DNA of 54,655 nucleotides from Enterobacteria phage mEp021. Made by a program: the position numbers and the translations under genes. The DNA lies in the sequence record MH706966. One strand, written 5' to 3'. Each line of letters starts with the position of its first letter. Position 1 is the stretch's first letter. This document shows positions 2,419 to 52,894 of the stretch, one piece after another. The notes beneath the pieces are model-generated. The model saw nothing but the letters and a program-made list of their open reading frames with translations, did not search any database and was not told where the DNA came from.

Positions 2419-2849
2419 TATTGCCCCCAGCGTTTTATAAATTCCTCGTTCAACTTAGTGTCACCAGACCATTGAACATTATGTTCAGCGCCGAACGAGT
2501 AGATCAGTTCGATTAGTTCGCTAAATTCTGCTTTACTCATCCGGCTGGTTGACGTACCCAGCACAACAAAACCTGATTTATCCAGGTTAGGGACAACGCC
2601 ATATTTCTTAAGTCCGGCAGTAAATACCGCCTTCCAGTCTTCCGGCGACAGCTTTTTTCCGTACCAATTAACCTGATCGCTAATGTCGGTTAACAGCGCC
2701 CATAAAAGGCTATTTTGACTAAGCGAGCGGGTTTTCTCCTGGATGGTAATTATCAGCGGGCTTTTGCTATCAGACTGGATCTCTCTTATCTGCCTGATAG
2801 CGTTTTCTTTTACGGCGTCGTTTACTATTTCAAATCTAATTTGCCTCAT
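2418..2849 (-). CDS. ninB: NinB/Orf-family recombination mediator
   Basis: 143 aa. Collinear with my recollection of lambda NinB: ...ITIQEKTRSLSQN..LWA...VVPNL...GFVVLGTSTSRM...EF.ELIELI..FG....V.WS. Confidence 0.8.
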   Translation of the reverse strand: MRQIRFEIVNDAVKENAIRQIREIQSDSKSPLIITIQEKTRSLSQNSLLWALLTDISDQVNWYGKKLSPEDWKAVFTAGLKKYGVVPNLDKSGFVVLGTSTSRMSKAEFSELIELIYSFGAEHNVQWSGDTKLNEEFIKRWGQ

Positions 2850-3573
2850 GGTTAGATAACGCCTCGTTTATTCTATTTGATGCAATTTCGAAATATTTTT
2901 CATCCTTTTCTATGCCGATAAAACGTCGGTTAGTATTAATGCAGGCAACGCCTGTAGTTCCGCTGCCCATAGTAAAATCGAGAACCGTTTCCCCTTCGTT
3001 AGTGTATGTCTTAATTAGGTATTCCATCAGTGCGACAGGCTTTTGTGTTGGGTGTACCTTGCCTTTCTGGTTTGCGTTACTTATCTCTATAATGCTTTTA
3101 GGGTGCTTATCCTTATAAGTCCTTAAATCACCATAATTAATTATGCGGTTTGCCTCCCCAGCAGAATATGTTTTACCCGTCCTTTCCTTTTGCGGAGTTT
3201 TTATTGGGTAATATTTGACAGCGCCTTTAGAAAAAACAACAACATCCTCATGCACCCTATAAGGTTGCCATTTGAGGACTTGCATGTTACCGCCTTTCTT
3301 CTTGTCCCATACCCAGCAATATTTAAACATGCTTATGTTGCTTGCAATTAGTGTTGTAGTGAACGGCTGACTTGCAGTCATCACAATGGCGCAATTCGGC
3401 TTAACTATGCGCTTTAATTGCTCCCACATTGGATTAAGAGGAATGACGGAATCCCATTTGCAGGCCGTTGTGCCGTAAGGCGGATCAGCCATTACCATAT
3501 CAACGCTACCGCCTGGGATAGAGTTCATGACCTCCAGACAATCACCCAACAATAATGTAACATCTTTATTCAT
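2836..3573 (-). CDS. DNA methyltransferase (N6-adenine/N4-cytosine class, DPPY motif)
   Basis: 245 aa with the catalytic motif VMADPPYGT and an HPTQKP motif, followed by a C-terminal SAM-binding FTMGSGTTG. Confidence 0.85.
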   Translation of the reverse strand: MNKDVTLLLGDCLEVMNSIPGGSVDMVMADPPYGTTACKWDSVIPLNPMWEQLKRIVKPNCAIVMTASQPFTTTLIASNISMFKYCWVWDKKKGGNMQVLKWQPYRVHEDVVVFSKGAVKYYPIKTPQKERTGKTYSAGEANRIINYGDLRTYKDKHPKSIIEISNANQKGKVHPTQKPVALMEYLIKTYTNEGETVLDFTMGSGTTGVACINTNRRFIGIEKDEKYFEIASNRINEALSNHEAN

Positions 3574-4629: not shown

Positions 4630-6045
4630 TTAAAAAGATGCGTTATTCTGGTTGTTTCGTTGGTTAAATCTGCCTGTGCGGTGATTCATAGACTGAATAC
4701 ACGCAGCAGCCGCGCGTGCCTGGTCGCATGGTAAAATGTTGCCGTTATCATCAAACCGCTGGTAAACAGTGCCAGATTTACCATGACGGTTTTTCGATAC
4801 AATGATTTCCATATATTCGCGGGCTACAGACTGCTCATCGTAATATCCATCGCGGTAAACCATGATGATCCTGTCAGCATCTTGTTCAAGGTTCCCGGAA
4901 TCGCGCAGATCTGAATTGTTAGGACGCTTGTTCGGTCGCTCCTCAACGCGGCGTGACAACTGCGCCAGCGCTAACACTGGAACGCGCAATTCTTTTGCCA
5001 TCATCTTCAACGACCATGACAATTGCCCAACAGCGAGATCATGACGTTCAGCCTTAGCCAGCTTCATCAACCCGATGTAGTCAATCATTACCATACCCAG
5101 GTTAGGATGTTCCTGTTTCATCCGTTCCGTGGTGGCGCGTATTTCCTCAACCGTTAACTGCGACGCGTCAACGATCCACACATCAAGATTAGCAAGTGCG
5201 CTCATACCCTTGCCGACATGCGCCCACCCCTCATCATCAAGTTTTACCGGATTACGCAGGCAGTCTGTTGATAAATTACCAGCGCCAGCTATAGCGCGTT
5301 CAGTCATCTGATCGAGTGACATTTCAAGCGTGAAGAACAAAACGCCAACCCGCTGATCTTTACTGCCAGGGTAAGGGCGCTCAGCGGCAGCGCGGGCAAT
5401 TGTCAGCGCCAACGCAGATTTACCAGACCCAGGGCGTCCAGCTAAAAGCACCAAATCAGTAGCGTTAATGCCTCCCAACATCTCATCGAGTGGATCTATC
5501 CCTGTTTTGATGTTGTCAGAATTAACACCGCATTCCATGCGCTTGCTTAAAACGTCCGTATATTCCTGTACCGCATCACGCAACAGAACAGGAATGATCT
5601 TATCTTTCGTTACCTTTAATTTTGAATACCGGGAATCAAAATCTTTCATCGTCTCTTTGACGACCTCAAGCGTCCCCGTCTCCAGTTTGTAGCGCATATC
5701 GTCGATGAGTTCCAACATCTGCCGCCGCTGGTGCTCTTCACGTAGTAGCTGTGCGTATCCCTTCAGGTTGGCAGCAGACGGGCACGATCTCGCCGTTTGC
5801 ATTAGCGGTACAAAGTTTTCGTTGCCAATCTCATCGCCAACCAATAACGCGTCAATAAGATTCCTGTTTCTGGCTTGCGCCCTGATAATTTCAAACGCAC
5901 GTTTATACAGCGGAATCGTGAACACTTCAGGATCAAGAGTGGCGAGAACATCTTGCGCGTTAGGAGTAAGGCCGCCCAACAGCAGCCCACCGATAACTGA
6001 CGCCTCACGTTCCTGCCGTAGTGAGTTTATTTGCTCAGTTACCAT
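4630..6045 (-). CDS. Replicative DNA helicase, DnaB family
   Basis: 471 aa. Walker A motif GRPGSGKSALAL, DnaB-type motifs (LFFTLEMS, DYIGLM, LAQLSR...RPNNSDLRDSG.IEQDAD) and a DnaB-like N-terminal domain. Confidence 0.9.
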   Translation of the reverse strand: MVTEQINSLRQEREASVIGGLLLGGLTPNAQDVLATLDPEVFTIPLYKRAFEIIRAQARNRNLIDALLVGDEIGNENFVPLMQTARSCPSAANLKGYAQLLREEHQRRQMLELIDDMRYKLETGTLEVVKETMKDFDSRYSKLKVTKDKIIPVLLRDAVQEYTDVLSKRMECGVNSDNIKTGIDPLDEMLGGINATDLVLLAGRPGSGKSALALTIARAAAERPYPGSKDQRVGVLFFTLEMSLDQMTERAIAGAGNLSTDCLRNPVKLDDEGWAHVGKGMSALANLDVWIVDASQLTVEEIRATTERMKQEHPNLGMVMIDYIGLMKLAKAERHDLAVGQLSWSLKMMAKELRVPVLALAQLSRRVEERPNKRPNNSDLRDSGNLEQDADRIIMVYRDGYYDEQSVAREYMEIIVSKNRHGKSGTVYQRFDDNGNILPCDQARAAAACIQSMNHRTGRFNQRNNQNNASF

Positions 6046-6079: not shown

Positions 6080-6586
6080 TCAGGGTAAAGAAATACCGTG
6101 ATTGCTATGAAAGTTATACATTCTTTCAGCTTCTTTTCTTGCTTTTACGGCATCATCAAATGAGTCACCGTAATAAACGTACATTGTTTTCTTTTTCCCA
6201 TCAGACCCCCTTATACCTATTTGCGCCCGCCATTTATGGGTTTTCTTGTTCCACGTAACGCCAACGCATCCGCTAGTATTACTTGATGGCATTGTTTTGT
6301 TTCTGTTATTCTCCTTCCTTGTCACTATCCTTAAGTTTTCGATTCTATCGTCACCAGGTACATGATTTATGTGATCTATTTCCATTCCATCAGGAATAGG
6401 GCCGTTAAACATTTCCCAGATAATGCGGTGACGCCATGTGCAACAAATACCATTAACGCGTATAGTCCAATATCCGCGATAATGTTTACATCCAGCCACG
6501 CTACCTGCTTTTATTTTGTTATTTGCACGGTTACAAGACCAATATAGAACGCCGTCGCTATATGTAAATAAATCATCCCACATCAT
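6080..6586 (-). CDS. HNH homing endonuclease with AP2-type DNA-binding domain
   Basis: HNH_3-like EIDHINHVPGDDRIENLRIVTRKENNRN followed by the AP2-like SGCVGVTWNKKTHKWRAQI. The start was moved to the ATGATG at 6586/6583 so that only 14 nt overlap the upstream gene. Confidence 0.8.
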   Translation of the reverse strand: MMWDDLFTYSDGVLYWSCNRANNKIKAGSVAGCKHYRGYWTIRVNGICCTWRHRIIWEMFNGPIPDGMEIDHINHVPGDDRIENLRIVTRKENNRNKTMPSSNTSGCVGVTWNKKTHKWRAQIGIRGSDGKKKTMYVYYGDSFDDAVKARKEAERMYNFHSNHGISLP

Positions 6587-7703
6587 GACACCCAACCATT
6601 TCAGGCCTATATACAAAGCGACCAATTTCGCCATAATCAGGGCTGTAAATGATAACCGCCGCGCAACGTTGCGATCTCCAGCCTCCATTAGTTGAATAAG
6701 CGTCTTTTCCCGCTAACGTGCCGTGGTGTTCAACTATGCCTATAGATGATTCTGTTACTGATTTATGGTGCAAATGTCCGACATGGACGTAAACATATTT
6801 CGACTTGCCAAAATCCTCACGCCAGTCAGCTACGCAAGCAGACAATAAATTTTCAGGCTTTTTGATAGTGTGCCCGTGGTGGTAAGCAAGGAATGTTTTT
6901 CCGTACTGTGTGTGGTGGACGATGGCAGGGGACACATCAACCGTCACGCGCGGTTCATCTTCGTAAAAAGCCGCCAGCGCCGCACGTAGCCAGATCATTC
7001 CTGACTGGTCGTGATTGCCGGATAACACCTGGATTTCAACATCCTTATGATTTAATAACATCTTCCCTACCGCCCGCCGGACAGACCGGATCGCTACATA
7101 AACAAGTTTTGCGTAGCGACTATCTTGATCAAGAATGTGCCCGCTTGTTGGTGTCACCGGGACCATACCGTCAGAATGAAGTAGATCGCCACCGAGGAGC
7201 AGTACTGCTTTTTCAGACATAGGAGCAGCGCCAACCGCGTAGTCAAAGAAGTCATTCAACACGCGCTCAGCGATCCCAGTATCGTAGCTCTCACCGCATT
7301 CAGCTTTATGAGCAAGTGCCCCGATATGCAGGTCAAACACCGGATAAAGAGCCAGGCTTTTTTGAAAATCAATTTCCGGCACTGGCACTGCCTCCGCGCG
7401 TGGTATTTCTTCCGTGAATGCGTCGCGGGCGGCTTCCATTAGCCTTTCCATTTCATCGCGATCACGGGCTGTTTTAATCCAGCGCATGACCGTATTACCA
7501 GCCTTATCGACAAGAACAGATTCACCAGTAACGCCAAAACCCGGTGCGCGGCGCGTTGATAATAAACCGCGTTTCGCCAGCTTTGCGCCAAGCCGCTCGA
7601 CGTTGCGTTTTGACATGCCATATTTTTCGGCGATCTGTTTATACGTTAAACCGTTGTTATATTCAGCGATCAATTGCTCATCGCTTATCTTTCTTTGCGA
7701 CAT
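6573..7703 (-). CDS. N-terminal HTH fused to a calcineurin-like metallophosphoesterase (replication-module protein)
   Basis: 376 aa. HTH LTYKQIAEKYGMSKRNVERL, then phosphoesterase motifs DLHIG, GGDLLHSDG, GNHD, HHGH and GHLHH. Confidence 0.7.
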   Translation of the reverse strand: MSQRKISDEQLIAEYNNGLTYKQIAEKYGMSKRNVERLGAKLAKRGLLSTRRAPGFGVTGESVLVDKAGNTVMRWIKTARDRDEMERLMEAARDAFTEEIPRAEAVPVPEIDFQKSLALYPVFDLHIGALAHKAECGESYDTGIAERVLNDFFDYAVGAAPMSEKAVLLLGGDLLHSDGMVPVTPTSGHILDQDSRYAKLVYVAIRSVRRAVGKMLLNHKDVEIQVLSGNHDQSGMIWLRAALAAFYEDEPRVTVDVSPAIVHHTQYGKTFLAYHHGHTIKKPENLLSACVADWREDFGKSKYVYVHVGHLHHKSVTESSIGIVEHHGTLAGKDAYSTNGGWRSQRCAAVIIYSPDYGEIGRFVYRPEMVGCHDVG

Positions 7704-7736: not shown

Positions 7737-9224
7737 TCATTGGCAGAAAACAATCTCTTTAAATGCTTTTTCTACCATGTCGAATACTTCCGGCCTGTAA
7801 TAGAAAAACTCATTGCTTCCATCAAATTTCACAGGAAAATTGATTTTATAATTACTAAAAGCCTTATGCATCGTGTTTTCTAGTTTATGTATACTTTCGG
7901 TTGGCCCTTCTAACGTTTTCACGACACACAAATCAGGGATTCTAACACCTGCTTTATGTGCGCTTTTTAATATCCGATTTCTTCGCTCGTTCTCCTTAAC
8001 ACTTACGCCGATTTTCATTTGTGTAGGTAATTCCAGATCATCAACCATGATGTAAAGTTTGCCATAATCATAACGAAAGAAACCGTATTTAGCGCATTTT
8101 TGGCAACCCCTACCGCGCTTAAGTTCTCTAGGTCTAACCGACCACTTATGATTACAAACCTTACAGCGGCATGATACTTTTTTATTTACGTTCGTTATTT
8201 CTCCCAGCACTTCAACATCAGGATTAACCTTAGCAATAGCTAAAACATGTTCTTCGTGCGTTATAATCTTCCCAGCACATTTTGGGCAACCCTTCCCGCG
8301 TTTAAGGTTGCTAGGAGTAACCGACCACTTATGATTACAAACCTTACAGCGGCATGATACTTTTTTATCTACGTTCGTTATTTCTCCCAGCACTTCAACA
8401 TCAGGATTAACCTTAGCAATAGCTAAAACATGTTCTTCGTGCGTTATAATCTTCCCAGCACATTTTGGGCAACCCTTACCGCGCTTAAGGTGGTTAGGTC
8501 TAACTGACCATTCATGATCACAAACCTTGCAGCGGCATAATACTTTTTTGTCGCCACCTGTAATTTCACCCAGCACTTCAACATCAGGATTAACCTTCGC
8601 AATGGCAGCAATTTGTTTATAATGTGATAGTCTTAGTTTTTGTGCAATTTTCACACATTTACATTTCGGGCAACCGCTCCCGTGTTTAAGGGCGTCAGGC
8701 GTAGCCGACCATACACGATCACAAATCTTGCAGCGGCATAATACTTTTGTTCTGCTATTAACAATTTTCCCCAGCACTTCAACATCAGGATTAATTCTTG
8801 AGATGGCGGCGATCTGTTCTTCGTGTGATAATCTTTTTGGCCCTTGCTTTAACATTGCGCATTTCGGGCAACCATTCCCGCGTTTAAGGTTGCTAGGAGT
8901 AACCGACCACTCATGATCACAAACCTTGCAGCGGCATAATACTTTTGTGCTGTTATTTATTATTTCCCCCAACACTTCAACATCAGGATTAATTTTAGCA
9001 ATAGCCGCAATTTGTTCTTCGTGGGATAGCCTTGCGTTCCCAGCGCATTTTGGGCAACCTTTACCGTGTTTAAGGTTGCTAGGAGTAACCGACCATTCAT
9101 GATCACAAACCTTGCAGCGGCATAATACTTTTTCCCGGCTTCCAGTAATTTCTCCCATCACTTCAACATCAGGATTAACTTTCGCAATAGCTGCAACCTG
9201 TTCTTCGTGTGTTAGCTTGCACAT
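7737..9224 (-). CDS. Six tandem Zn-ribbon modules (CxxC...GCPKC) fused to a C-terminal T5orf172/GIY-YIG-like domain
   Basis: 495 aa. A module of about 61 aa, HEEQ(V/I)AAIAKVNPDVEVLGEI...KVLCRCKVCDHEWSV.P..LKRGKGCPKCAG, is repeated six times. The C-terminus GKLYIMVDD...MKIGVS...R..IL...H...F...KINFPVKFDGSNEFF resembles T5orf172. Confidence 0.8.
   Translation of the reverse strand: MCKLTHEEQVAAIAKVNPDVEVMGEITGSREKVLCRCKVCDHEWSVTPSNLKHGKGCPKCAGNARLSHEEQIAAIAKINPDVEVLGEIINNSTKVLCRCKVCDHEWSVTPSNLKRGNGCPKCAMLKQGPKRLSHEEQIAAISRINPDVEVLGKIVNSRTKVLCRCKICDRVWSATPDALKHGSGCPKCKCVKIAQKLRLSHYKQIAAIAKVNPDVEVLGEITGGDKKVLCRCKVCDHEWSVRPNHLKRGKGCPKCAGKIITHEEHVLAIAKVNPDVEVLGEITNVDKKVSCRCKVCNHKWSVTPSNLKRGKGCPKCAGKIITHEEHVLAIAKVNPDVEVLGEITNVNKKVSCRCKVCNHKWSVRPRELKRGRGCQKCAKYGFFRYDYGKLYIMVDDLELPTQMKIGVSVKENERRNRILKSAHKAGVRIPDLCVVKTLEGPTESIHKLENTMHKAFSNYKINFPVKFDGSNEFFYYRPEVFDMVEKAFKEIVFCQ
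8138..8503 (-). repeat. Near-perfect 183-bp (61-codon) tandem duplication inside the Zn-ribbon gene
   Basis: 8138-8293 repeats at 8321-8476 with about one mismatch. The rest of the gene (to about 9215) consists of diverged copies of the same unit. Confidence 0.85.
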
Positions 9225-9600: not shown

Positions 9601-10608
9601 TCAAATAGCGCCTGCGCGTGTATCGCGTAGCGTTTTTGGTTTAAGCAGGAAATCAAGTGTCGCAGTGAAGCCATTGCCGAAGTAAAAGTCTGAAGCCGTG
9701 TTTTTAAACGCCTCAAAGTAAGCAATAAAGCCAGTGATGCTTTTGTCTTTCAGGTAGTCAGTGAACGCATAGATCTTGCGTTCAAGATCCCGATCCAGTT
9801 CAGCAGGTGGCAACAGGCCATCAAACGTGCTGTTAAATGCTTCCACTACGTCGGCAGCGTTTGCAGTGACTGACAGTTTGCTCCATTGTTCAGCATCAGC
9901 CAGATACCCATCGAATTTAGTTACCCGGCAAATGTTAACAGGCTTAGGCACTCCACCACGGCCACGCCATTGCGTTAAAGCCCACTCAATCACTAATGTG
10001 ATCTCACCCTCCGTATACGCTTTGCGTGTTTTTGTTTCTGTCAGTAGTTCTACGAATGGCTTTGCATCACGACATTTGCATCCTGCCTTGTCGTTGTAGA
10101 AGGACAGGCAACGCAATGCCGCCAGATTAACCTCCCGATCTTCTTCGCTGATAGACTCGTCTTTTTCCAATACACGAAGTGTATTGTTTTTAATGTTCTC
10201 TTTACTGGTTATATATGACTGATTAGGGTTGCTCTCTGCCACTACCCCCGGTTGCTTTGTGCCACTACCCTGGTTGCTCTCTGCCACTACCCCCGGTTGC
10301 TTTGTGCCACTACCTGACAGTGAAGGTAAAACGATTACATAGAAATTGCTCGTTTGTTCTTTCCCTCCTATTAAATATCGAGGCTGTTTTAGTAATAAAC
10401 CTTTTTTGCAAAGAGCCTCGATTGCTCTCATTGCCGTACTTTTGTTTATTTCGCATTGCTTTGCTATGTGCTGGTAAGAAGGGTAGCACTCTCCGTTATC
10501 GTTAGCGTTATCAGCCAACTTTAACAGCACAAGTTTGTGCATTGGGTTGCCGACTTCAGTATGAAAGACTTCAACCATTAGCCGCATACTCATAAGCATT
10601 AACCTCAT
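9601..10608 (-). CDS. Replication initiator, lambda O-like (N-terminal winged HTH; start codon ambiguous, 10608-10578)
   Basis: The N-terminus KLVLLKLADNANDNGECYPSYQHIAKQCEINKSTAMRAIEALCKKGLL is typical of phage O/HTH_36 initiators. The gene contains iterons (peptide repeat SGSGTKQPGVVAESN twice), as lambda O does. Confidence 0.8.
   Translation of the reverse strand: MRLMLMSMRLMVEVFHTEVGNPMHKLVLLKLADNANDNGECYPSYQHIAKQCEINKSTAMRAIEALCKKGLLLKQPRYLIGGKEQTSNFYVIVLPSLSGSGTKQPGVVAESNQGSGTKQPGVVAESNPNQSYITSKENIKNNTLRVLEKDESISEEDREVNLAALRCLSFYNDKAGCKCRDAKPFVELLTETKTRKAYTEGEITLVIEWALTQWRGRGGVPKPVNICRVTKFDGYLADAEQWSKLSVTANAADVVEAFNSTFDGLLPPAELDRDLERKIYAFTDYLKDKSITGFIAYFEAFKNTASDFYFGNGFTATLDFLLKPKTLRDTRAGAI
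10168..10316 (-). repeat. Candidate origin of replication: four 22-23-bp iterons, an AT-rich stretch and a palindrome, inside the O-like gene
   Basis: Iterons GGTTGCT(C/T)T(CT/-)GTGCCACTACCC at 10228, 10250, 10272 and 10295. AT-rich segment at 10187-10227. Perfect palindrome CAATACAC-GAA-GTGTATTG at 10168-10186. Confidence 0.7.
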
Positions 10609-15894: not shown

Positions 15895-16515
15895 ATGAAC
15901 GACATTAAAACAGCTTATTCACTAGGCAGCGATGGCATGTTAATCACTCGCTACACTGAAGACGCAAGTTTTCATGAAGTGGAAACGAAGGATTATCACG
16001 AAGTATTAAAAGATATGGAAGCTGGCGCGTATGACGCAGATTTGAATCTGGCTTTACAGATTGTTGATATTATGATGGACGCGTCGATCCGCGATTATGT
16101 GTCTTTAAACGCTGAAGAAAAAACGGCTGTGGCTCGTTATGTCTTCTGCCTAACTTTCGTGAAACGAATGGAAGAGGAATATGGGCGCGTGCCAGTGCCG
16201 GAAGAAATTGACCCGCTGGCGTTCGGAAGCGCTGTTATTTTCCCGTTAGATGAAAATCATACTGGTAGCGTTGCGCTGCATTCTATGCGCGGCGTAATGA
16301 AATGCATCTTTGAGGCTAAAGCGCTACAGAAGTGCATTGATGAAGGGCATGACGAAGAAGACGTAAAAGCGATCATGCCGTTGTTTTATGGCGAAATGGT
16401 TGGGAACAACATGCGCGCAAATGATTTAGGTGTGCAGGCTGCCATAACTGTACTTAACGAAGCGCGGAAAATGTCGCAGCCAATGCCGGAACCTGAAAAA
16501 CGTGTACTGCATTAA
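15895..16515 (+). CDS. Hypothetical protein (206 aa)
   Basis: Long ORF in the operon. No motif recognised. Confidence 0.55.
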   Translation: MNDIKTAYSLGSDGMLITRYTEDASFHEVETKDYHEVLKDMEAGAYDADLNLALQIVDIMMDASIRDYVSLNAEEKTAVARYVFCLTFVKRMEEEYGRVPVPEEIDPLAFGSAVIFPLDENHTGSVALHSMRGVMKCIFEAKALQKCIDEGHDEEDVKAIMPLFYGEMVGNNMRANDLGVQAAITVLNEARKMSQPMPEPEKRVLH

Positions 16516-17804: not shown

Positions 17805-18344
17805 ATGAAAAATGATTTTGGAGGCAGCCACACTCCTAAGGAAATTAAAGATCTATGGCAGACGCCTAAACCAGTTTTCAGAGGAATGGACCGCGAATTT
17901 GAATTTGTCGCTGACGTGGCGGCAAACAAGGAAAATGCGCTAGTTCCTCGGTATATAACCGAAGAAATGGACACGTTGCATTATCCGTGGGGAGCTGTGG
18001 CAATGCCTGGTGAGTATGTCTGGCTTAATCCGCCATATTCTAAACCGGGGCCATTCGTTGAGAAGGCGGCATTAGAACATCAACGAAATCACATTGGCTG
18101 TGTAATGCTGTTGCCCGCTGACATTTCTGTTAGCTGGTTTATGAACGGCGTGGATACGGCAAACGAATGCCGATTAATCACGCGCGGGCGGCTGGCGTTT
18201 ATCAATGCTGCGACTGGTAAGCCAGTAAGCGGAAACAATAAAGGGAGCTTGTTTTTGATCTGGCATCCACGGTGCAGACATGAATGTATTTTTACACACA
18301 TAACACGTAAAGAGCTATACGCAAGAGGTGCAGATAATGACTAG
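17805..18344 (+). CDS. Phage Dam-type DNA N6-adenine methyltransferase
   Basis: 179 aa. WQTPKPVF...FVADVAA...NALVPRY and the catalytic LNPPYS are characteristic of the small phage Dam family. Confidence 0.8.
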   Translation: MKNDFGGSHTPKEIKDLWQTPKPVFRGMDREFEFVADVAANKENALVPRYITEEMDTLHYPWGAVAMPGEYVWLNPPYSKPGPFVEKAALEHQRNHIGCVMLLPADISVSWFMNGVDTANECRLITRGRLAFINAATGKPVSGNNKGSLFLIWHPRCRHECIFTHITRKELYARGADND

Positions 18345-18834
18345 TGCAGCAGATTTACTACGAATCGCAGCGGAAACAATTGAGCAAAGAGGTAAACAAA
18401 ACGGCTACGACAGAAAAGAGGAAAAATCAGCGCCAAAAATAGCCACTATATACAACGCTAAGAAGGGCGCAAATTTAACCCCACTTGATGTATGGGATCT
18501 GATGATTTGTCTTAAGGAGGCGCGTTTAGAGGCTATTTTGGTTAATGGCAGCGATCCCACTGACACTTTGGTTGACCTAATCAGCTACAGCGCACTAAAA
18601 GCTGAGCAAATATTGAATGATCTGGATGAAGAGTTAAAGAAAAATCAGTTCACTGCCGCCAATATTAATGATGGAATAATAAATGACGCAGCAATAACAA
18701 GCTGTAAGGGATTGCCGCCTTCAATGCTTAAACCTCAGTGTGGCTGTATTTCAAATCGGCTTGATTTGAGTTTTGACAGATCTGAAGCTATTCGCGACAA
18801 GAGGTATGACCCAAATGAAAAAGGTGACAATTGA
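18337..18834 (+). CDS. Conserved phage protein (165 aa)
   Basis: RBS GAGGTG. The N-terminus AADLLRIAAETIEQRGKQNGY...DVWDLMICLKEARL recurs in phage early regions as I recall. Function unknown. Confidence 0.5.
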   Translation: MTSAADLLRIAAETIEQRGKQNGYDRKEEKSAPKIATIYNAKKGANLTPLDVWDLMICLKEARLEAILVNGSDPTDTLVDLISYSALKAEQILNDLDEELKKNQFTAANINDGIINDAAITSCKGLPPSMLKPQCGCISNRLDLSFDRSEAIRDKRYDPNEKGDN

Positions 18835-19318
18835 CAGGTTATTGGCCTGCGTTTATGTCGCCGTTTTCGTGATCATCAACCTAATTGTTAACCATTGCGG
18901 CCCGTGGGTGATTCCTATCACTACGGTAGCCGCTGTGTGTGTCAATATGATGATCCGCGACTTCCTGTTATATGACGGCGGTATCAAGTGGTCGGCGACA
19001 ACATGCGCCGCCGCTGGCGCAATCACTGTGCTGATAAATTACGACGCCGGAATGGTAGCGATCGCGTCATTTGTTGCGGTTGTTTCCGGTGCACTTATTT
19101 CTGGCGGCGTTTACCGGGTTTTACCTGGTGACTTTGATTCAAAACGATGGCCTGCAAATATAGCGTCAGCAATAGGCGATGCGTTGATTTTCCCTACGCT
19201 ATCGTTTATGGCATTCATGCCGGAAATATCAGCAATGCAATTCATATCCAAAATGGCGGCGGTAACGGTGATCACTATCATCATGCGCCGCTATTTTACG
19301 TTTGAGGGTAGAAAATGA
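18815..19318 (+). CDS. Polytopic inner-membrane protein, possibly VUT/YhhQ-like (7-deazapurine precursor transporter family)
   Basis: 167 aa with 4-5 TM segments. ASFVAVVSGALISGGVYRVL...KRWPANIASAIGDALIFPTLSFMAF resembles my memory of the E. coli YhhQ C-terminal half. The family assignment is weak. Confidence 0.5.
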   Translation: MKKVTIDRLLACVYVAVFVIINLIVNHCGPWVIPITTVAAVCVNMMIRDFLLYDGGIKWSATTCAAAGAITVLINYDAGMVAIASFVAVVSGALISGGVYRVLPGDFDSKRWPANIASAIGDALIFPTLSFMAFMPEISAMQFISKMAAVTVITIIMRRYFTFEGRK

Positions 19319-20073
19319 GCAGGGGTAAACATTGGTTTAATAATTGGCTTAGAAATTGGGTCGTTTGGTCGTTGTACGACGGCAGCGGGTACGCCGTCAA
19401 AGATTGGGCGGAAGCAGGATATAAGTGCTATTGCTTCAACTATGACGGCGCAAATCACGGCGATTATGAAGGCGTTAAAATCATTCATCCAAATATTGAA
19501 TACGTTAACGTATGGATTGACAGTCACTTCCTGGTGATGTTCTCGCCTGAACTGTCAGTTTACCCAGATCCTGATATTATCCTGGGCTTCCCGCCGTGCG
19601 ACGATCTCGCCGTGTCTGGCGCTCGCTGGTTCGCTGATAAACGGAAAAAAGATCCTGACTTCCAGGTGAAGGCGGCGAATAGCGCAAAACTGGTAGAAAA
19701 ACTGGCGGATATGCACAACGTGCCGTGGATGGTGGAAAATCCGGTGGGAGCACTGTCAACGCTATGGCGCAAACCTGATTTTATTTTCAACCCTTGCGCT
19801 TACGGTGGCTACCTGCCGGAAGACGACAAACATCCTGCTTTCCCTGATGTTTACCCTGCGCGCGACGCGTATACAAAGAAAACTTGCATATGGTGCGGCA
19901 ACGGATTCAAACAGCCGCTTTTTAGACCTGTAGATCTTAACTCTGGCGATAACCCTGGGTGGGCGAAAACAGGAGGCAGGACGAAACGAACAAAGATGAT
20001 ACGCTCACTAACTCCGCGCGGCTTTGCCCGTGCTGTATTCATGGCTAACCATGACCGCGTTTTACCGGACTGA
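19315..20073 (+). CDS. Compact C5-cytosine-methyltransferase-like protein
   Basis: 252 aa. Motif I-like SLYDGSGYA, motif IV-like GFPPCDDLAVSGA, motif VI-like MVENPVG and motif X-like LTPRGFARAVF. No obvious target-recognition domain. Confidence 0.6.
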   Translation: MSRGKHWFNNWLRNWVVWSLYDGSGYAVKDWAEAGYKCYCFNYDGANHGDYEGVKIIHPNIEYVNVWIDSHFLVMFSPELSVYPDPDIILGFPPCDDLAVSGARWFADKRKKDPDFQVKAANSAKLVEKLADMHNVPWMVENPVGALSTLWRKPDFIFNPCAYGGYLPEDDKHPAFPDVYPARDAYTKKTCIWCGNGFKQPLFRPVDLNSGDNPGWAKTGGRTKRTKMIRSLTPRGFARAVFMANHDRVLPD

Positions 20074-37725: not shown

Positions 37726-40071
37726 ATGTCCACCAGTTTAGGTACAATTTATTACGAAGTTGATGCAAAAACTGGTCAACTTCTAGTCGCTCAGAGACAG
37801 GCGGATCAGGCTTTTGACAGTATCGAGCGTGGCGCAAAACGCGCTGACCGCCAGGTTAACACGCTTAAAACTTCAATCAAAGCACTATCCAGGGTTATAC
37901 ATCTGCTACTTGCTGCGGAGGCTGTGCGCCAGTTTATTGACATGGCGGAGCAAGCAAAAATGCTTCGTGTCAAAATTAAAATGCTCACAGGTGACGCAGA
38001 GGCCGCAGGACGTGTTTTTGACGGCCTGAAAAAAATATCAAAGGAAACCGGGCAAAGCCTTAAAGACACTGGCGAATTGTGGCAAGGCCTGGCTATTTCA
38101 CTAAAGAATACTTCCGCTACGGAAGGCCAATTGCTCAACCTGGTTGGCACTATTCAGAAGATGGGGGCGTTAGGAGGCGCGTCAGCGGAACAGATGTCTA
38201 ATTCTATGCGCCAGTTCCGCCAGTCTATAGACGGCGGCGTGCTGCGTGCTGAAGAGTTTAACAGCCTGTTAGAGAACACGCCGACCATCGTACAGACAAT
38301 GGCCCGCCATATGGGGTTGTCAATGGGCCAGTTCCGCGCCGAAATGCTGGACGGCAAGATCACGGCTGAAAGGATGGTTAACGCGATTCAGGCAGCTACA
38401 CAGGAAACAAACGAGAAGTTTGCACAGTTGCCGCGCACGTCCGGCAAGGCTATCAATGAGCTTAAAGTTGAGGTGATGGGGCTTGTCGAACAACTTGACG
38501 ATCTTTTCGGCATATCAGATGGCGTTGTATCAGCTATCGACTTAATAACTGGCGGCGTTGAGGGATTAGGTAAAGGCGCTAAATTCGCCGCAACCTGTTT
38601 TAATACACTCAAAACGGCTGGCAGTGAGTTCATAGACATGTTTGACGACGTGGCTGTTAAGGCTGGCGAGGTGGCGGAAGAAATCATTAGAATGGTAACG
38701 CCAATCAAGGCGCTAATGGATGGCTACAAATGGATGAAGGAGATTGTAGGAAAGCAAACAGAAGAATATAACACCAATTATGAGAAGAAATACGGTAAAA
38801 GACTTGGTAAGGGAATGCAATTTTGGGATGATTGGCAGGCCGTACTTAACCAAACAAAAGAAAACAAGGGAACCGACACCGCTGACGACGGCAAGATCAC
38901 CGGATTCGAGCCACCAGTAGATAAGCCAGGAAAACCGAAAAAAGGAAAAAAAGACAAGAAATCTGAAGCTGATCGGCTTGGTGATGAAGGTATAAAAGTG
39001 TCCGACCAGTACAACAAGGACGCCGCCGCTATGCGCAAAGCATTAGAGAACGGCAAGGCCATTGATGCTGCATTCGCCCAGGGCAAAATCACCCTCCTTG
39101 AGTACAAGGCCGCGCAAAAGGGGATAGGCAAGGAACTGAAGGACGAATTGGCACAAATCCCGGTGGAAGAATTGCAAGATAAATGGGCGCACATAGTAAG
39201 CCCAATGGATCAGCTTAAGGGCGAAATTGACCCAATCAAACAGGCGCAGAATGAGTGGGCTGTCAGAAAACAAATGCTATTAGACCTGGGAGCTACAGAA
39301 GCGCAACAGAGACAGGCGCAGTTAGAATATGAGCAACAGATCAGGGATCTGAAGTGGGAGCAATGGCAGGCGCAAAGCGACACAAACAGCCTGATTGGTG
39401 CTTGTGTTAGCGGCCTCAAGGGTGGCATGGGTAATGCGCTTACTGGCCTGTTAAACGGTACTCAATCATTAAGCGAGGTTTTTGCCAACCTGGGAAGCAG
39501 CATACTTAACACCGTAGGCAATAAACTTTCGGAAATAGCCGCTAACTGGATAGCAGATCAATTGATGATGGAAACGCAAAGCAAGGCTACACAGGCAAGT
39601 ACAGCGGCTGGCGCTGTGGCAGCGCAGGGCGAGATTGCTGCGGCAGCGGCCCCGGCAGCGGCTGCGACGGCGGCATCAACTGGCGGTAGCTGGGCGGCGG
39701 CTGGTGCTGCGGCGCTTTCTGCTATCATGTCGCTGGCAACGTCAATTTTTGGCGGCGGTCGTTATAATGGTGGTTCTGTGAATGGTGGCAGTCTGTATCG
39801 CGTAGGGGAACACGGAATACCGGAGCTATTCCAGACGAGCAACGGGCGTCAGTATATGATTCCTGGGGAAAATGGCAGGGTTATTCCTGGCCGCGATCTT
39901 TTCAGTGGTGGCAGCATCAGTATGCCTGTTAACATTACCGTTCAGACCACAAACGGGTTTAGCGAAGAGGACAGTCGCAGATTGCAAGACGCCATGAAAC
40001 GCGTTGCAATGGGAGTAATTAAAGAGCAAAGTTCAAGGCCCGGAGGTCTTATCCAACCACGAAGAAAATAA
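37726..40071 (+). CDS. Tape measure protein
   Basis: 781 aa, largely helical, with a Gly/Ala-rich hydrophobic segment near the C-terminus. Confidence 0.9.
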   Translation: MSTSLGTIYYEVDAKTGQLLVAQRQADQAFDSIERGAKRADRQVNTLKTSIKALSRVIHLLLAAEAVRQFIDMAEQAKMLRVKIKMLTGDAEAAGRVFDGLKKISKETGQSLKDTGELWQGLAISLKNTSATEGQLLNLVGTIQKMGALGGASAEQMSNSMRQFRQSIDGGVLRAEEFNSLLENTPTIVQTMARHMGLSMGQFRAEMLDGKITAERMVNAIQAATQETNEKFAQLPRTSGKAINELKVEVMGLVEQLDDLFGISDGVVSAIDLITGGVEGLGKGAKFAATCFNTLKTAGSEFIDMFDDVAVKAGEVAEEIIRMVTPIKALMDGYKWMKEIVGKQTEEYNTNYEKKYGKRLGKGMQFWDDWQAVLNQTKENKGTDTADDGKITGFEPPVDKPGKPKKGKKDKKSEADRLGDEGIKVSDQYNKDAAAMRKALENGKAIDAAFAQGKITLLEYKAAQKGIGKELKDELAQIPVEELQDKWAHIVSPMDQLKGEIDPIKQAQNEWAVRKQMLLDLGATEAQQRQAQLEYEQQIRDLKWEQWQAQSDTNSLIGACVSGLKGGMGNALTGLLNGTQSLSEVFANLGSSILNTVGNKLSEIAANWIADQLMMETQSKATQASTAAGAVAAQGEIAAAAAPAAAATAASTGGSWAAAGAAALSAIMSLATSIFGGGRYNGGSVNGGSLYRVGEHGIPELFQTSNGRQYMIPGENGRVIPGRDLFSGGSISMPVNITVQTTNGFSEEDSRRLQDAMKRVAMGVIKEQSSRPGGLIQPRRK

Positions 40072-43996: not shown

Positions 43997-44033
43997 TTAG
44001 CGTGACGTAGATCACAAATTGCAAGGTGATAAA

Positions 44034-44738
44034 ATGCGCAGCATACCTACAGAAATGATTATTGATTCCGTGGATGCCGGAGTCGGCGCGGTAATTGACT
44101 TGTTTGAATTAGACCTCACGCCCCTGGGTGGCGAGGTTATCCGCTTCCATTCCGGCGCGAATGGCTATTACGGCCCGGTTATCTGGAAGGGGGTGGCCTA
44201 CAACAGCTACCCAATCGAGGCGACTGGCTTCGAAATGAAAAACGAAGGCGTTTACTCACGCCCACAAATGGTAGTAGCCAACATCGGCGGGCTAATCACC
44301 GGGATGAATAACGATTTTAACGACCTGCGAGGAATGAAGGTTACGCGCCGCCAGGTGGAGGTAAAATACCTGGACGCCGTTAATTTCCCCAACGGCAACC
44401 CGGATGCAGATCCATCTATTGAGGCTGTGTCTTTTTACGTCGTTGAAGCGATGAGTGAAGAAACAGCCGACCAGGTGCAATATGAACTGTCAACGCCAAT
44501 TGATGCTGATAAGGCGGTTATCCCTGGGCGCACAATTCTCGCTGACGTTTGCCAGTGGCAATATCGCGGCGACGGTTGCGGATACAGTGGCGGCCCTGTA
44601 GCTACAGATAAAGACGAATCGACCAGCGATCCAAAACTGGATAGATGCAGCCACCGCCTGAGCGGTTGCCGTTTGCGTTTTCCGCGCCCCAACCCGTTAC
44701 CAATTTCCTGTTTCCCGGGATCAAGCAAGGTGGGTTGA
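44034..44738 (+). CDS. Minor tail protein L
   Basis: Trimmed to the ATG with RBS AAGGTGA. Carries the conserved gpL Cys cluster CQWQYRGDGCGY. Confidence 0.85.
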   Translation: MRSIPTEMIIDSVDAGVGAVIDLFELDLTPLGGEVIRFHSGANGYYGPVIWKGVAYNSYPIEATGFEMKNEGVYSRPQMVVANIGGLITGMNNDFNDLRGMKVTRRQVEVKYLDAVNFPNGNPDADPSIEAVSFYVVEAMSEETADQVQYELSTPIDADKAVIPGRTILADVCQWQYRGDGCGYSGGPVATDKDESTSDPKLDRCSHRLSGCRLRFPRPNPLPISCFPGSSKVG

Positions 44739-45957: not shown

Positions 45958-46524
45958 GTGAACTGGTCTGAATTGTTTGTTTATGATGAAGATTCTCCTT
46001 CATGTTTAAGGTGGAAAGTCACCGCTAACAGCAGAACGGCGAGGACTGGCGATGCGGCAGGAAAAATAGTAGCGGCAAAAAGCGGCAATAAGTACTGGAA
46101 AATCACATGGAAGGGCCGTCGCTATTATGCTCACCGGATTGTTTACGAATTATGCAGTGGCAGAAAATTAAAACGCAGTGAGATCATCGATCACATTGAT
46201 GGTAATGGGCTTAATAATAAATTCAATAACATACGCGTAACAGATAAAAAAGGTAACGCCAGAAATATGACCATAGGTCGCGCGACAAGGGAGAGCGGAT
46301 TGCCATTTGGGATATGTTGGCACGCAGAAGGGAGATCTATTAGAGCACGTATCACCGCTGATAACGACAAAAGAGTTAGTAAATCATTTAGCGTTATAGC
46401 GTGCGGTGGACTTGAAATGGCTATTAATGCCGCCGTCGCGTGGCGGTCATTCATGATTGAAGAGCTAAATAAAGCTGGCGCAGGATACACGAAATTACAC
46501 GAAACAGGGGGTTTATATGTCTAG
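45958..46524 (+). CDS. HNH homing endonuclease with AP2-type domain (second copy)
   Basis: GTG start with RBS AGGGGG. IIDHIDGNGLNNKFNNIRVTDKKGNARN plus GLPFGICWHAEGRSIRARI. Inserted between I and J. Confidence 0.8.
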   Translation: MNWSELFVYDEDSPSCLRWKVTANSRTARTGDAAGKIVAAKSGNKYWKITWKGRRYYAHRIVYELCSGRKLKRSEIIDHIDGNGLNNKFNNIRVTDKKGNARNMTIGRATRESGLPFGICWHAEGRSIRARITADNDKRVSKSFSVIACGGLEMAINAAVAWRSFMIEELNKAGAGYTKLHETGGLYV

Positions 46525-49500
46525 TGGCGGCGGTAAAGCAAAAACGCCAACTTTGCTTAATGATAATTTGTTTCATAAACAATTTTATCGGGTTTTAGAT
46601 ATTCTAAGTGAAGGACCAATTTTTGGAGTAGTTAACCAAACAGCGCCATTAAACAGCGTAATGCTTAATGACACGCCTATCACTGACGCAAGCGGAAACA
46701 CATCAGTCCCTGGCGTTAGCTTAGCGTGGCGTAATGGTACGGCTGACCAGTCACCAATCAACGGCTTCAACGCTATTGAGTCAACCGTTATTGTCAACGC
46801 AAAAGTAACTCACGACACACCAATAATCAGGACCATTTCAGATCCCAACGTTAACCGCGTAAGGCTGAATCTTGGCGTTGACTCTTTGGTAAGGTCAGAT
46901 GACAAGGGCAATCAATACAATACATCCGTTATGTTGATGGTTGATGTCAAACCTTCATCGTCATCAACGTGGTCACTGGTTAAAGATATTACTATTGGCC
47001 CAGGCAAACAAAGCGGTGAGTATCTAGAAGCCCACATTATCAACGCGCCGGATGAAAAACCGTTTGATATTCGCGTTCGTCGCGTAACGCCAGACAGCAC
47101 GGGAGATCTTCTTCACAATGATACCAGGTGGAGCAGTTACAGCGAGATAATCGATGATAATTTGTCTTATCCCCATACCGCTGTTGCTGGCGCGGTAATT
47201 GACCACGATCAGTATACTGATACGCCTACCCGCACCTATCATCTGCGTGGGCTGATTGTTGATGTTCCTGATAACTACGACCCGGAAACGCGCACGTATT
47301 CAGGATTATGGCTTGGTGGCTTTAAAAAGGCGTATACCAATAACCCTGCATGGCTTTTCCGGTATCTGGTTAAAAATGAACGTTTCGGGCTTGCCCGTCA
47401 TGCTGGTTACATTGATGTTGACGACGGCGCATTATATACGCTTTCTCAATACTGCGACCAGTTGGTTAGCGACGGATACGGCGGCTTTGAACCTCGCATG
47501 ACGCTTAATGCTTACATCACGGAGCAAATGAGCGCACGCGACTTACTTGATAACATTGCAGGCATGTTCCGTGGTATCGCGTTATGGGACGGGCAACGCC
47601 TTACCGTGATGATTGATGCACCACAAGATCCGATCGCCACCATTACAAATGCAAACGTCGTTGATGGCGCGTTTACTCGTTCAAGTATTGCCCGCGCAGA
47701 ATCTTACAACGCCGTGATTGTGTCATGGACTGACCCAGAAAACGGCTGGGAGCAATCAAAAGAATACGTGGCAGATGATGAATTGATCGCCCGCGACGGT
47801 TATAACGAAACAACGCTAGAGGCGTTCGGTTGCACGTCACGCGGGCAAGCGTACCGCGCTGGCAAATGGCTGATAGAAACGGCAAAACGCGAGCCATCAA
47901 AATTCACGTTTAAAATGGCCCGTGACGCAATTCACTTCACCCCCGGGGATATTATCGAGATACTCGACAATAACCGCGCTGGCGCTCGTTTAGGCGGCCG
48001 CATCGTGGCGAACAGTGGGAAGGTGATAACGGTAGACAAGGTTGATTCTGAATATATCGCGGCTGGTGACACTATCAGTTTACTTGATAGTGATGGCAAG
48101 TTTAAAAAACACCAGATCACCGGAGTTAACGGAAACAACATCACCCTTGCAACCGCCCCCGCATGGATTCGTAACGGGACCGTATTCGCTGTGTCAACTG
48201 AAGCGGCAAAACCTGTTCTGTGTCGAATTATCAGCGTAGCAGAAACAGAAAATAACAGCGTGTACACCATCGAGGCAGCACAACATGACCCACACAAACA
48301 GGCTGTAGTTGATGAAGGCGCAATCTTCGAGGTAAACAACGACACGCTTAATCACTTCCGCGTGCCGAACATTGAAAATCTGAAGGTGTTAAACGTTGGT
48401 TCTGAAACTGTTCAATGTCGCGCTACATGGGAAACACAGACGACAACGCATCGCCTGACCTTTGAAATACGCGTATATAACGCCGAAGGCCGCGTGGTGG
48501 CAGCTTATGAAACAACGAATTACCGCTATGATTTTTATGGCCTCGATGCTGGCAGCTACACACTTGGTATTCGCGGTCGTAATGACACTGGCATGAAGGG
48601 GGCGGAAAGTATTGTTGACCTGGTTATTGGCGCGCCAGCGGCCCCAATTGGAGTTAATTGGGTTCCCGGCGTTTTCCAGGCAACAGTATACCCGATCAGC
48701 AAAACAACACTGACAACTGATACAGCATACGAGTTCTATTTCTCAGGTGAAAATCAGATCACTGACCCATCAAAAGTAACAACTTTGGCGCAGTTTACCG
48801 GGCGCGGCTATCAGTGGACTTTTGGCGGAATGAACACGGGCCATACCTATTACGTTTATGTCCGCACACGTAACGCTTTTGGTGTGTCAGATTTCGTTGA
48901 GTCATCAGGAAAACCAACTGAAAACTTCGATGAAATTAGCGACTACGTCACCAAAGACGTGATTAACTCAGAACAGTTTAAAGGGATGATTAGCGACATT
49001 AAAGATCTTGGCGACCGCGCCGACCTTATCGAAAGCGCTACAAATGACCTTAAAACTGCTACCGACAACCTCAAAACTGCAACTGATAACCTGACAAACA
49101 TCACTGACGATTTAATGGTTGACACTGACAACCTGACAAACATCACTGACGAATTGAGGACTGATACGGACGGCTTAATCACAGAAACAGGGGCCATAAA
49201 AGCTGATACGGACACACTGAAAAAACAAACGGAAGATCTTTATAAAAAGGTTGGGGAAAACGCCGATGATATTGGACAGCATGAGGCAAGAATAGATTCA
49301 CTGGAGGTATCTAGCGAAAAAGTTGGCAGTGAACTTGCGCAAGCAAAAGCAAGCCTGCAAAACGCGTCATTGGCGCTTATCAATAACTCACTTGCACAGA
49401 CTAACACTCGCGTAACTCTTACCGCTCAGTATAAGAAAGGCAGGACAGAGACGAAGGCTGAAATTGACCGTATTGACAACGTTATTGCTGAAGAGAAAAA

Positions 49501-51740: not shown

Positions 51741-52676
51741 TTAATAAATTACTGGCAAATAAGGAAGATTCATACCTATACAGAAATCCGGCCTGTTACC
51801 TATTTCATACCTGACAATCCTTGATCCTGTTCCGCTTTTCACCTGCCCGTTGTACATCATAATGCCTTTGTATCTTAGTTCCTTGTATGCTGATATAGCT
51901 CTAGTATTAAAGCCGCATCTCAATATTGGGAAGAACGCGTCACCTATTGTCTGGTAACTATTCGATAACGCTATAAATCCCTTAACAACCAATGGCCTTT
52001 GTTTTGTTGAAAACACGCATTGATTATTTTTATTAATGATGGTTATTCCGTCGCCAGGTGATGGCGGTGATTTGCTAAAAATAGCCAAATTCATCGTTAC
52101 CGATCCATATGTGTCACCAGTTGCAGAAGTGTTTGTGTTTGTACAGATCAATTTATTGTTTCCGTCAAACTCAACTGAAACACCGCTATTGCTCCAGTTA
52201 CCGAAAGGAACACCGGCAACTGGCATAGTGTAAGAACCATTAAAGCTAACACTCCCAACCCATAAACATGACATCAATGTATCGTTAGTCGTTATCGATG
52301 CAAAATCTGTGCTATCTGCAACTAATATACCCTCACCAGTAGACGCCTTTGCTATCTCAAACACGCTACCGCTAAAATTAGTGATCCTATCAGAATATGC
52401 GTTCTCACCACTAATTGAAATCCTTGCCGTGCCACCAGAAGCACTAAAGCCTGATATAAAATATGTTTCAACACCCCTGTCAAGCTCAAACGCGTAAGCG
52501 CCTACCTTTGGGATTAGAAACTTATCGCCGCCAGTTAAATCCTTTATGGAAAAACTTTGCGAAAACCCAGCATTTTGAATATTGAAATCTCCAGCGTGTG
52601 AGAACGCACGCAACCCGCTTGTTATTTCCATTGCAGGGCGTCCGTCATTCAGCCCAATATATATACCCGCCCCCAT
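51741..52676 (-). CDS. Beta-rich 311-aa protein of unknown function
   Basis: Trimmed to the ATG overlapping the lipoprotein stop (TAATG). Ser/Gly/Thr/Asn-rich with no signal peptide seen. Confidence 0.6.
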   Translation of the reverse strand: MGAGIYIGLNDGRPAMEITSGLRAFSHAGDFNIQNAGFSQSFSIKDLTGGDKFLIPKVGAYAFELDRGVETYFISGFSASGGTARISISGENAYSDRITNFSGSVFEIAKASTGEGILVADSTDFASITTNDTLMSCLWVGSVSFNGSYTMPVAGVPFGNWSNSGVSVEFDGNNKLICTNTNTSATGDTYGSVTMNLAIFSKSPPSPGDGITIINKNNQCVFSTKQRPLVVKGFIALSNSYQTIGDAFFPILRCGFNTRAISAYKELRYKGIMMYNGQVKSGTGSRIVRYEIGNRPDFCIGMNLPYLPVIY

Positions 52677-52894
52677 TAGTACCACTCCTTACTTCCGCAA
52701 TCTCTAGTCTTGCCACTATGACCATCAGTGCCATCATAAACGCGACAGATCTCACCGGACGGAACCTTAGCCCCGTCAACCCATCTTTCATAGCAGACAC
52801 CGTATGCGCTAGTTGCACAATGGCCGTTGTGTCGATTAGTGTCAGCGCAACCAACCAGAATAGCCGCAACAGCGATAATTGTTACCATTTTCAT
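52676..52894 (-). CDS. Small Cys-rich lipoprotein (72 aa), Cor/Llp-like position
   Basis: MKMVTIIAVAAILVGC lipobox, RBS GGGGTG, and six further Cys in the mature part. Confidence 0.65.
   Translation of the reverse strand: MKMVTIIAVAAILVGCADTNRHNGHCATSAYGVCYERWVDGAKVPSGEICRVYDGTDGHSGKTRDCGSKEWY

Follow-up and report, generated by a model that had tools for sequence, protein, structure and literature searches.

Transporters of the VUT/QPTR family (YhhQ, PF02592, COG1738) are secondary transporters that import queuosine precursors, namely 7-deazaguanine bases, among them preQ0 and preQ1. The 7-deazaguanine DNA transglycosylase DpdA replaces guanine in DNA by preQ0. Homologues of both proteins are encoded in the E. 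coli phage CAjan, whose gene cluster has the order folE-queD-queE-queC-yhhQ-dpdA and whose DpdA (gp35) has been validated genetically as a DNA transglycosylase (PMC7544227). Every phage known to have 7-deazaguanines in its DNA encodes DpdA, which is their signature (PMC10516641), and the YhhQ homologues of phages were earlier stated to be uncorrelated with any phage group (PMC6884629). The DNA analysed here (the window) is a stretch of 54,655 nucleotides (nt) from Enterobacteria phage mEp021 (record MH706966), a temperate phage of E. coli from the non-lambdoid mEpimmI group, which was described recently (PMC11893012). It contains a gene for a 167-amino-acid (aa) membrane protein, referred to below as the transporter, which is directly followed by a gene resembling those of cytosine-C5 DNA methyltransferases (C5-MTases). 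An initial annotation of this locus had suspected that the former belongs to the YhhQ family and that the two proteins act together in a DNA modification other than methylation. In the explanation that we favour, if only with modest confidence, the transporter is an orphan VUT importer without a DpdA that stands beside an independently acting C5-MTase in a densely packed early-operon block of the mEpimmI phages.

A divergent VUT-family protein in mEp021

The open reading frame (ORF) of the transporter was taken to start at ATG 18815; other in-frame starts are ATG 18806, which is used in the record of phage mEp515, and TTG 18773. That the product is a polytopic membrane protein was borne out by a grand average of hydropathy (GRAVY) of 0.93 and by six hydrophobic windows of 19 residues, two of them overlapping, which suggest about six helices. 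A single-sequence AlphaFold model was all-helical, with six long helices and a short one, at low confidence (predicted local distance difference test, pLDDT, 44), and proved unusable for a fold search. The protein matched phrog_4899 (E 1.3e-46). An NCBIfam scan gave no match for any of the three proteins examined, and a sequence search of the PDB with the VUT profile returned chance matches to Tim22 only (E ~0.1) and no solved structure of the VUT family.

Close homologues of the transporter are few (12 clusters, all with at least 54% identity). Seven of them were combined into a profile, with which HMMER recruited 257 proteins at E ≤ 1e-3 from 1.84 billion representative sequences; the 81 best full-length matches formed the alignment A2. 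Pfam Vut_1 was found at E ≤ 1e-3 in 77 of the 81 relatives scanned, ten out of ten relatives checked one by one were above its gathering threshold, and a second search with A2 returned PF02592 proteins named ‘VUT family protein’, ‘queuosine precursor transporter’, and ‘YhhQ (DUF165 family)’. Comparison of A2 with E. coli YhhQ by hhalign gave a probability of 93.5% (E 2.4e-7; 141 columns; YhhQ residues 13–191), and the hidden Markov model (HMM) of A2 scored YhhQ at 5e-10 and CAjan gp41, an annotated preQ0 transporter, at 1.7e-17. Significance against these two proteins was reached only with this broader profile and not with that of the mEp021 clade alone (A1; effective sequence number, Neff, 1.5). 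The transporter keeps 15 of the 18 positions conserved to at least 90% in A2, including R48-D49, N115, D122, F126-P127, and K146. At the level of sequence profiles, the mEp021 protein belongs to the VUT/QPTR (YhhQ, PF02592) superfamily, of which it is a divergent representative, as the initial annotation had guessed. The C-terminal segment that had been described there as YhhQ-like is exactly the part aligned by BLASTP with K-12 YhhQ (residues 75–137 with YhhQ residues 105–173), although at an E-value of 0.19, and the similarity became significant only with profiles. A family is hereby assigned to a gene that is labelled ‘hypothetical protein’ in phage records and RefSeq and goes unmentioned in the published description of the mEpimmI group (PMC11893012).

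Like the mEp021 protein, E. coli YhhQ is a polytopic helical membrane protein, and the two have in common the Arg of an ‘RD’ motif, the motif ‘A-x-A-S’, and, ahead of a conserved Phe, the Asp of ‘D-(S/A/T)’. YhhQ is larger (221 aa), whereas the mEp021 protein is phage-encoded, its transport function is putative, and the Asp of the YhhQ motif ‘ILDVHVF’ is replaced by Ser. Closer in size is CAjan gp41 (159 aa), a putative preQ0 transporter and a short phage VUT like that of mEp021. The mEp021 clade has fixed the exchanges D44N and D96S as well as that of an invariant Asn for Thr, all at sites that are 94–100% conserved in 65 distinct DpdA-linked relatives. Residue 96 is Asp in both YhhQ and CAjan gp41 and Ser in the mEp021 clade; the first replaced Asp (residue 44) is absent from CAjan gp41, too.

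Extra domains occur on some of the short-VUT relatives (P0158, P0160, P0162, P0183, P0193, P0202, P0393, and one member of A2). Proteins of about 300 aa among these relatives have a C-terminal extension of ~140 aa without a family match; P0202 carries DUF5020, P0393 a nucleoside 2-deoxyribosyltransferase domain (PF05014), and one sequence a QueF-like domain.

DpdA as the usual partner and its absence from mEp021

Relatives of the transporter are encoded on more than 540 IMG/VR contigs, of which the best 80 were fetched (median locus length ~7 kb). In three metagenomic temperate-phage contigs (L005–L007), the gene of a short VUT protein overlaps the end of a gene for a 245-aa protein that matches phrog_887, ‘queuine tRNA-ribosyltransferase’ (E 6e-69). 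Of 83 viral loci outside the mEpimmI group, 78 had a DpdA-like ORF no more than ~450 nt from the VUT gene, mostly directly upstream of it and overlapping, and in three of the five remaining loci the VUT gene lies at the contig end. The HMM built from these VUT neighbours matched the validated DpdA of CAjan at 1.5e-18 and, in all five cultured phages checked (LHE71, Opt-719, Phc, RCIP0319, and ECO111 5-P), the ORF right after the VUT gene at 1e-65 to 1e-72. The VUT and DpdA genes of LHE71 and RCIP0319 overlap by 4 nt, which is the same type of junction as that between the transporter and C5-MTase genes of mEp021. When the CAjan Que proteins were searched against 84 loci (median length including flanks ~7 kb), a preQ0 synthesis gene was detected in only one, a queC located between the DpdA and VUT genes (L008, 1675–2199, + strand), the sole such case among the 80 viral loci fetched. 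QueF and QueC precede a VUT homologue in a genome of the Anaerolineae. Judged by this gene context, the phage-type VUT subfamily is firmly tied to 7-deazaguanine metabolism, and in other phages it presumably supplies the imported base to DpdA.

The VUT proteins of the Drexlerviridae and relatives with such a cassette (the five phages named above, PEAT2, and hundreds of IMG/VR contigs) belong to the same phrog_4899 as the transporter and are 28–36% identical to it over the full length. These phages also share with mEp021 the early-gene position and the 4-nt overlap with the downstream gene, but have DpdA down- or upstream of VUT, whereas in mEp021 a C5-MTase is found instead and DpdA was not detected. 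In the sampled viral contigs the short phage VUT gene and dpdA make up a tight cassette of two genes, for the most part with no preQ0 synthesis genes in the flanks, a pattern that sharpens the earlier statement on phage YhhQ homologues (PMC6884629). DUF6378 and Dam, which precede the transporter in mEp021, were considered as general companions of the cassette and discarded, as DUF6378 occurs in 1 of the 83 other loci and this Dam in none. Genes of all three types, VUT, DpdA, and C5-MTase-like, can coexist in one phage: in L040 (7060–7686, +) and L018 (4226–4822, −) a phrog_757-type C5-MTase-like gene lies a few kb from VUT-DpdA. LHE71 (L090) has a split C5-MTase-like homologue (169–483 and 480–884, −; family HMM 1e-48 and 1e-41) ~2 kb from its VUT-DpdA pair, which may be a frameshift or a pseudogene.

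Neither tblastn with the DpdA of L005 against the whole window nor hmmsearch with the DpdA HMM (--max, E ≤ 50) found a corresponding sequence in mEp021. No TGT-like PHROG or Pfam family was present among the 23 scanned of the 26 ORFs of at least 200 aa outside larger ORFs; the late-region ORFs 44019–44738, 37726–40071, and 46517–51700 lay outside that scan. By PHROGs and Pfam, the scanned large ORFs fall into families other than TGT/DpdA, except for two: 15895–16515, which matches only phrog_1515 (function not defined), and 1574–2227 (−; 217 aa), which has no PHROG or Pfam match. The latter adjoins the integrase and may be an accessory gene expressed in lysogeny. The ORF 2836–3573 (−), which at 245 aa equals the DpdA of L005 in length, was rejected as a hidden DpdA, as it encodes an N6/N4-type DNA methyltransferase (PF01555, E 4.8e-36; phrog_67); mEp021 thus has three different families of DNA methyltransferases. 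DpdA was also found within 5 kb of the block in none of 35 mEpimmI-like contigs. Genes for preQ0 synthesis (Que) were absent from the scanned ORFs of the window, and a search of the window with the CAjan Que proteins was likewise empty. Since DpdA was not detected and the phages known to have such DNA all encode it, mEp021 is, on present knowledge, not predicted to carry 7-deazaguanines in its DNA.

The methyltransferase-like gene and explanations for the locus

The ORF downstream of the transporter gene matches phrog_757, ‘DNA methyltransferase’ (E 8e-87), and has more than 7,700 homologues, many of them named DNA cytosine methyltransferase. The initial annotation had noted PC and ENV-like motifs, and these are indeed present, in the segments ‘FPPCDDLAVSG’ and ‘MVENPVG’, although motif VI reads ENP and not ENV; G23-S24-G25 (motif I), P93-P94-C95 (IV), and E141-N142-P143 (VI) are invariant in 30 homologues. 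Pfam PF00145 did not match the mEp021 protein and matched 6 of the 30 homologues (best E 1.3e-6), and a profile search against the PDB gave a weak match to DNMT3B (E 0.16). The AlphaFold model was confident (pLDDT 89; predicted template modelling score, pTM, 0.87), and its top Foldseek matches were solely catalytic domains of DNMT3A, DNMT3B, and DNMT3C (E ~1e-7). The mEp021 protein differs from the DNMT3A/3B catalytic domain and the M.HhaI class (PF00145) by its length of only 252 aa, the ENP motif, and the lack of a PF00145 match. The stretch behind motif VI is short, like the target-recognition region of the DNMT3 enzymes, but not missing, and the enzyme is not really the atypical one devoid of such a region that had been described earlier. 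Predicted fold and motifs make the protein a rather ordinary DNA cytosine-C5 methyltransferase of small size, whose activity is predicted.

To assess how regularly this enzyme accompanies a transporter, 80 viral loci encoding the methyltransferase family were fetched and the neighbours within 5 kb were determined. The 35 closest loci (at least 79% identity; ~53-kb mEpimmI-like genomes) all had a VUT gene directly upstream and a Dam gene, and 34 had DUF6378. None of the other 45 loci, whose methyltransferases are 53–63% identical to that of mEp021, contained VUT, DpdA, Dam, or DUF6378. A divergent relative (L004) keeps the four-gene block with a full-length VUT protein of 53% identity. Because VUT is present at all 35 mEpimmI-like loci and at none of the 45 distant ones, the pairing of VUT and C5-MTase is a trait of one phage lineage and not a property of either family.

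It is therefore quite improbable that the transporter imports a precursor, be it a 7-deazaguanine or another compound, which the adjacent enzyme of C5-MTase fold would install in DNA as a non-methyl modification, as had been proposed initially. The two genes do overlap by ATGA (TGA at 19316–19318, ATG at 19315–19317), they are always adjacent in the mEpimmI group (in the 35 contigs, in two isolate genomes inspected, and in L004), and the methyltransferase occupies the slot of DpdA in T1-like phages. However, the conserved partner of VUT elsewhere is DpdA, the 45 relatives of the methyltransferase sampled from its large family outside the lineage are all without VUT, and the enzyme retains the motifs for S-adenosylmethionine binding and catalysis of ordinary C5 methyltransferases. 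The overlap itself carries little weight, as junctions of this kind are frequent in the operon: in the homologous 19-kb early stretch of mEp515, a hand count from the annotation table gave ~8 overlaps of 4 nt among ~45 same-strand junctions, besides several 1-base overlaps. To our knowledge, there is also no chemistry by which an enzyme of C5-MTase fold uses a free deazapurine base. The broader notion that the orphan transporter feeds some DpdA-independent modification through an enzyme that has escaped recognition, for which the C5-MTase-fold protein, DUF6378, or the product of an unassigned ORF might be considered, is equally a long shot; if true, the mEpimmI coliphages would have a DNA or tRNA modification outside the rule that 7-deazaguanine phages encode DpdA.

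The selection acting on the transporter gene bears on the remaining explanations. Between mEp021 and MagusPhagus, its synonymous divergence (dS) is 0.35 and its nonsynonymous divergence (dN) 0.012, and the resulting dN/dS of 0.035 is the lowest in the block, followed by Dam (0.063), C5-MTase (0.093), NinG (0.094), RusA (0.096), and DUF6378 (0.20). The transporter is under strong purifying selection and hence still in use. This value already contradicts the very improbable reading of the gene as a decaying, non-functional remnant of an ancestral VUT-DpdA cassette, for which the missing partner and the replaced Asp residues could be cited. The ORF is intact in all isolates (the gene was found in six of the mEp type) and, with few exceptions, in the 35 viral contigs; the VUT protein of L004 is still full-length despite its divergence. 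Of 5,426 complete E. coli genomes, 35 contain the block as a prophage, with VUT annotated as hypothetical, and in 30 of these 35 the VUT ORF has its full length. Such constraint on an apparently partnerless gene might instead suggest that the transporter serves 7-deazaguanine DNA modification through an unrecognised, non-homologous or extremely divergent transglycosylase of phage or host. DpdA3 and DpdA4 were overlooked for years as very distant TGT homologues (PMC10516641), and the two ORFs of at least 200 aa without a functional assignment offer candidates. Nevertheless, we regard this as improbable: tblastn and HMM searches gave no TGT/DpdA signal in any frame of the window, preQ0 synthesis genes were not found among its scanned ORFs, the laboratory host E. 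coli K-12 is not known to possess a DNA transglycosylase, the unassigned ORFs, judged by eye only, do not look like TIM barrels, and the rule that phages with 7-deazaguanine DNA encode DpdA has held for all known cases (PMC10516641). An unlikely but more serious alternative is neofunctionalisation, in which the VUT fold was kept and the protein came to transport another solute or to serve in the membrane in a capacity other than transport, such as superinfection exclusion or host takeover. It would account for the clade-wide residue exchanges, the loss of the usual DpdA partner, and the direct Pfam score far under the threshold, and substrates do vary within the family, E. coli taking up preQ0 and preQ1 and Chlamydia queuine (PMC11130926). 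On the other side stand the 15 retained positions among the 18 most conserved ones and the possibility that the replaced residues are subfamily markers rather than essential, because CAjan gp41 lacks the first Asp as well.

For the favoured explanation of an orphan importer beside an independent C5-MTase, the simplest history would be that a VUT-DpdA-type cassette, or VUT alone, entered the early operon of the mEpimmI lineage and that a C5 methyltransferase, not DpdA, came to lie behind VUT; in T1-like phages this slot, with the same 4-nt overlap, is occupied by DpdA. In all likelihood the methyltransferase needs only S-adenosylmethionine and no partner, and the two genes would be co-transcribed, and perhaps translationally coupled, only through the packed Dam-DUF6378-VUT-C5-MTase block. 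The most likely role of the transporter would be the import of a 7-deazaguanine-type base usable only by host pathways (Tgt, queuosine-tRNA); alternatively, given the two replaced Asp residues, it may import a related but different solute.

Several points weigh against this explanation. The host, E. coli, has a YhhQ of its own and synthesises preQ0, and both the benefit of a second importer and the strong selection on a partnerless gene are not explained by it. Compared directly, the transporter reached an E-value of only 0.28 with Pfam Vut_1 (12 bits, below the gathering threshold of 27.2), in a weak alignment that spans residues 13–157 and profile positions 6–149 of 152. Transport by members of the short phage VUT subfamily is itself putative, and in CAjan, which also makes preQ0, deletion of the yhhQ homologue left DNA modification unchanged (PMC7544227). 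The replaced residues may mark an altered substrate, or even an altered activity, and the constant adjacency of VUT and C5-MTase within the mEpimmI lineage is compatible with a functional link, although not evidence for one. The lineage is a natural exception in which the transporter is kept under strong selection while the transglycosylase is absent. Two questions could be addressed with it in a simple setting, namely whether host queuosine-tRNA is what phage QPTRs act on, and whether deazaguanine modification of DNA truly depends on DpdA. Short of the discovery of a new modification, the practical importance is modest.

The early-operon block and neighbouring genes

Over the 1.45 kb of interest, mEp021 is 99.2% identical to Escherichia phage mEp515 (1,451 bp compared) and 85–92% identical to mEp010, mEp554, mEp044, mEp013, and MagusPhagus. 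The features of the block are listed in Table 1. It is followed on the same strand by NinG, RusA, and a Q-like antiterminator. The GAGGG sequence is located 7 nt upstream of the methyltransferase ATG.

Table 1. Genes and sequence elements of the Dam-DUF6378-VUT-C5-MTase block of mEp021 (positions in the window).
Feature	Position	Strand	Evidence and remarks
Dam-type N6-adenine DNA methyltransferase	17805..18344	+	PF05869, E 5.5e-52; first gene of the block
DUF6378 protein, 168 aa	18328..18834	+	PF19905, E 2e-8; overlaps transporter start
VUT/QPTR (YhhQ-family) membrane transporter (putative), 167 aa	18815..19318	+	Divergent phage-type; phrog_4899
DNA cytosine-C5 methyltransferase-like protein, small, 252 aa	19315..20073	+	phrog_757; motifs I YDGSG, IV FPPCDD, VI ENP
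ATGA stop/start overlap of transporter and methyltransferase genes	19315..19318	+	Read from sequence
GAGGG, Shine-Dalgarno-like, putatively for the methyltransferase gene	19303..19307	+	Within the transporter gene, at its 3' end

The DUF6378 protein is longer in mEp021 than in L004, where it has 99 aa (5374–5673); its C-terminal half is variable, and the end of its gene overlaps the transporter start by 20 nt. A search of the PDB with DUF6378 gave nothing useful. Within the transporter ORF, a hairpin with a T-rich tail (19111–19131, +) corresponds to ‘terminator T5’ of the mEp515 record; four terminator-like sites were found in the region versus 2.7 expected in shuffled sequence, which is no clear excess.

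The replication module comprises an O-like initiator (9601–10608), an exonuclease (6573–7703), and a DnaB-like helicase (4630–6045); the HNH endonuclease genes within it (6080–6688 and 7737–9224, both −) may be mobile insertions. Between the large tail gene and the tail fibre gene lies, on the opposite strand, the gene of a DUF6453 membrane protein (51741–52685, −; phrog_1265, ‘moron’).

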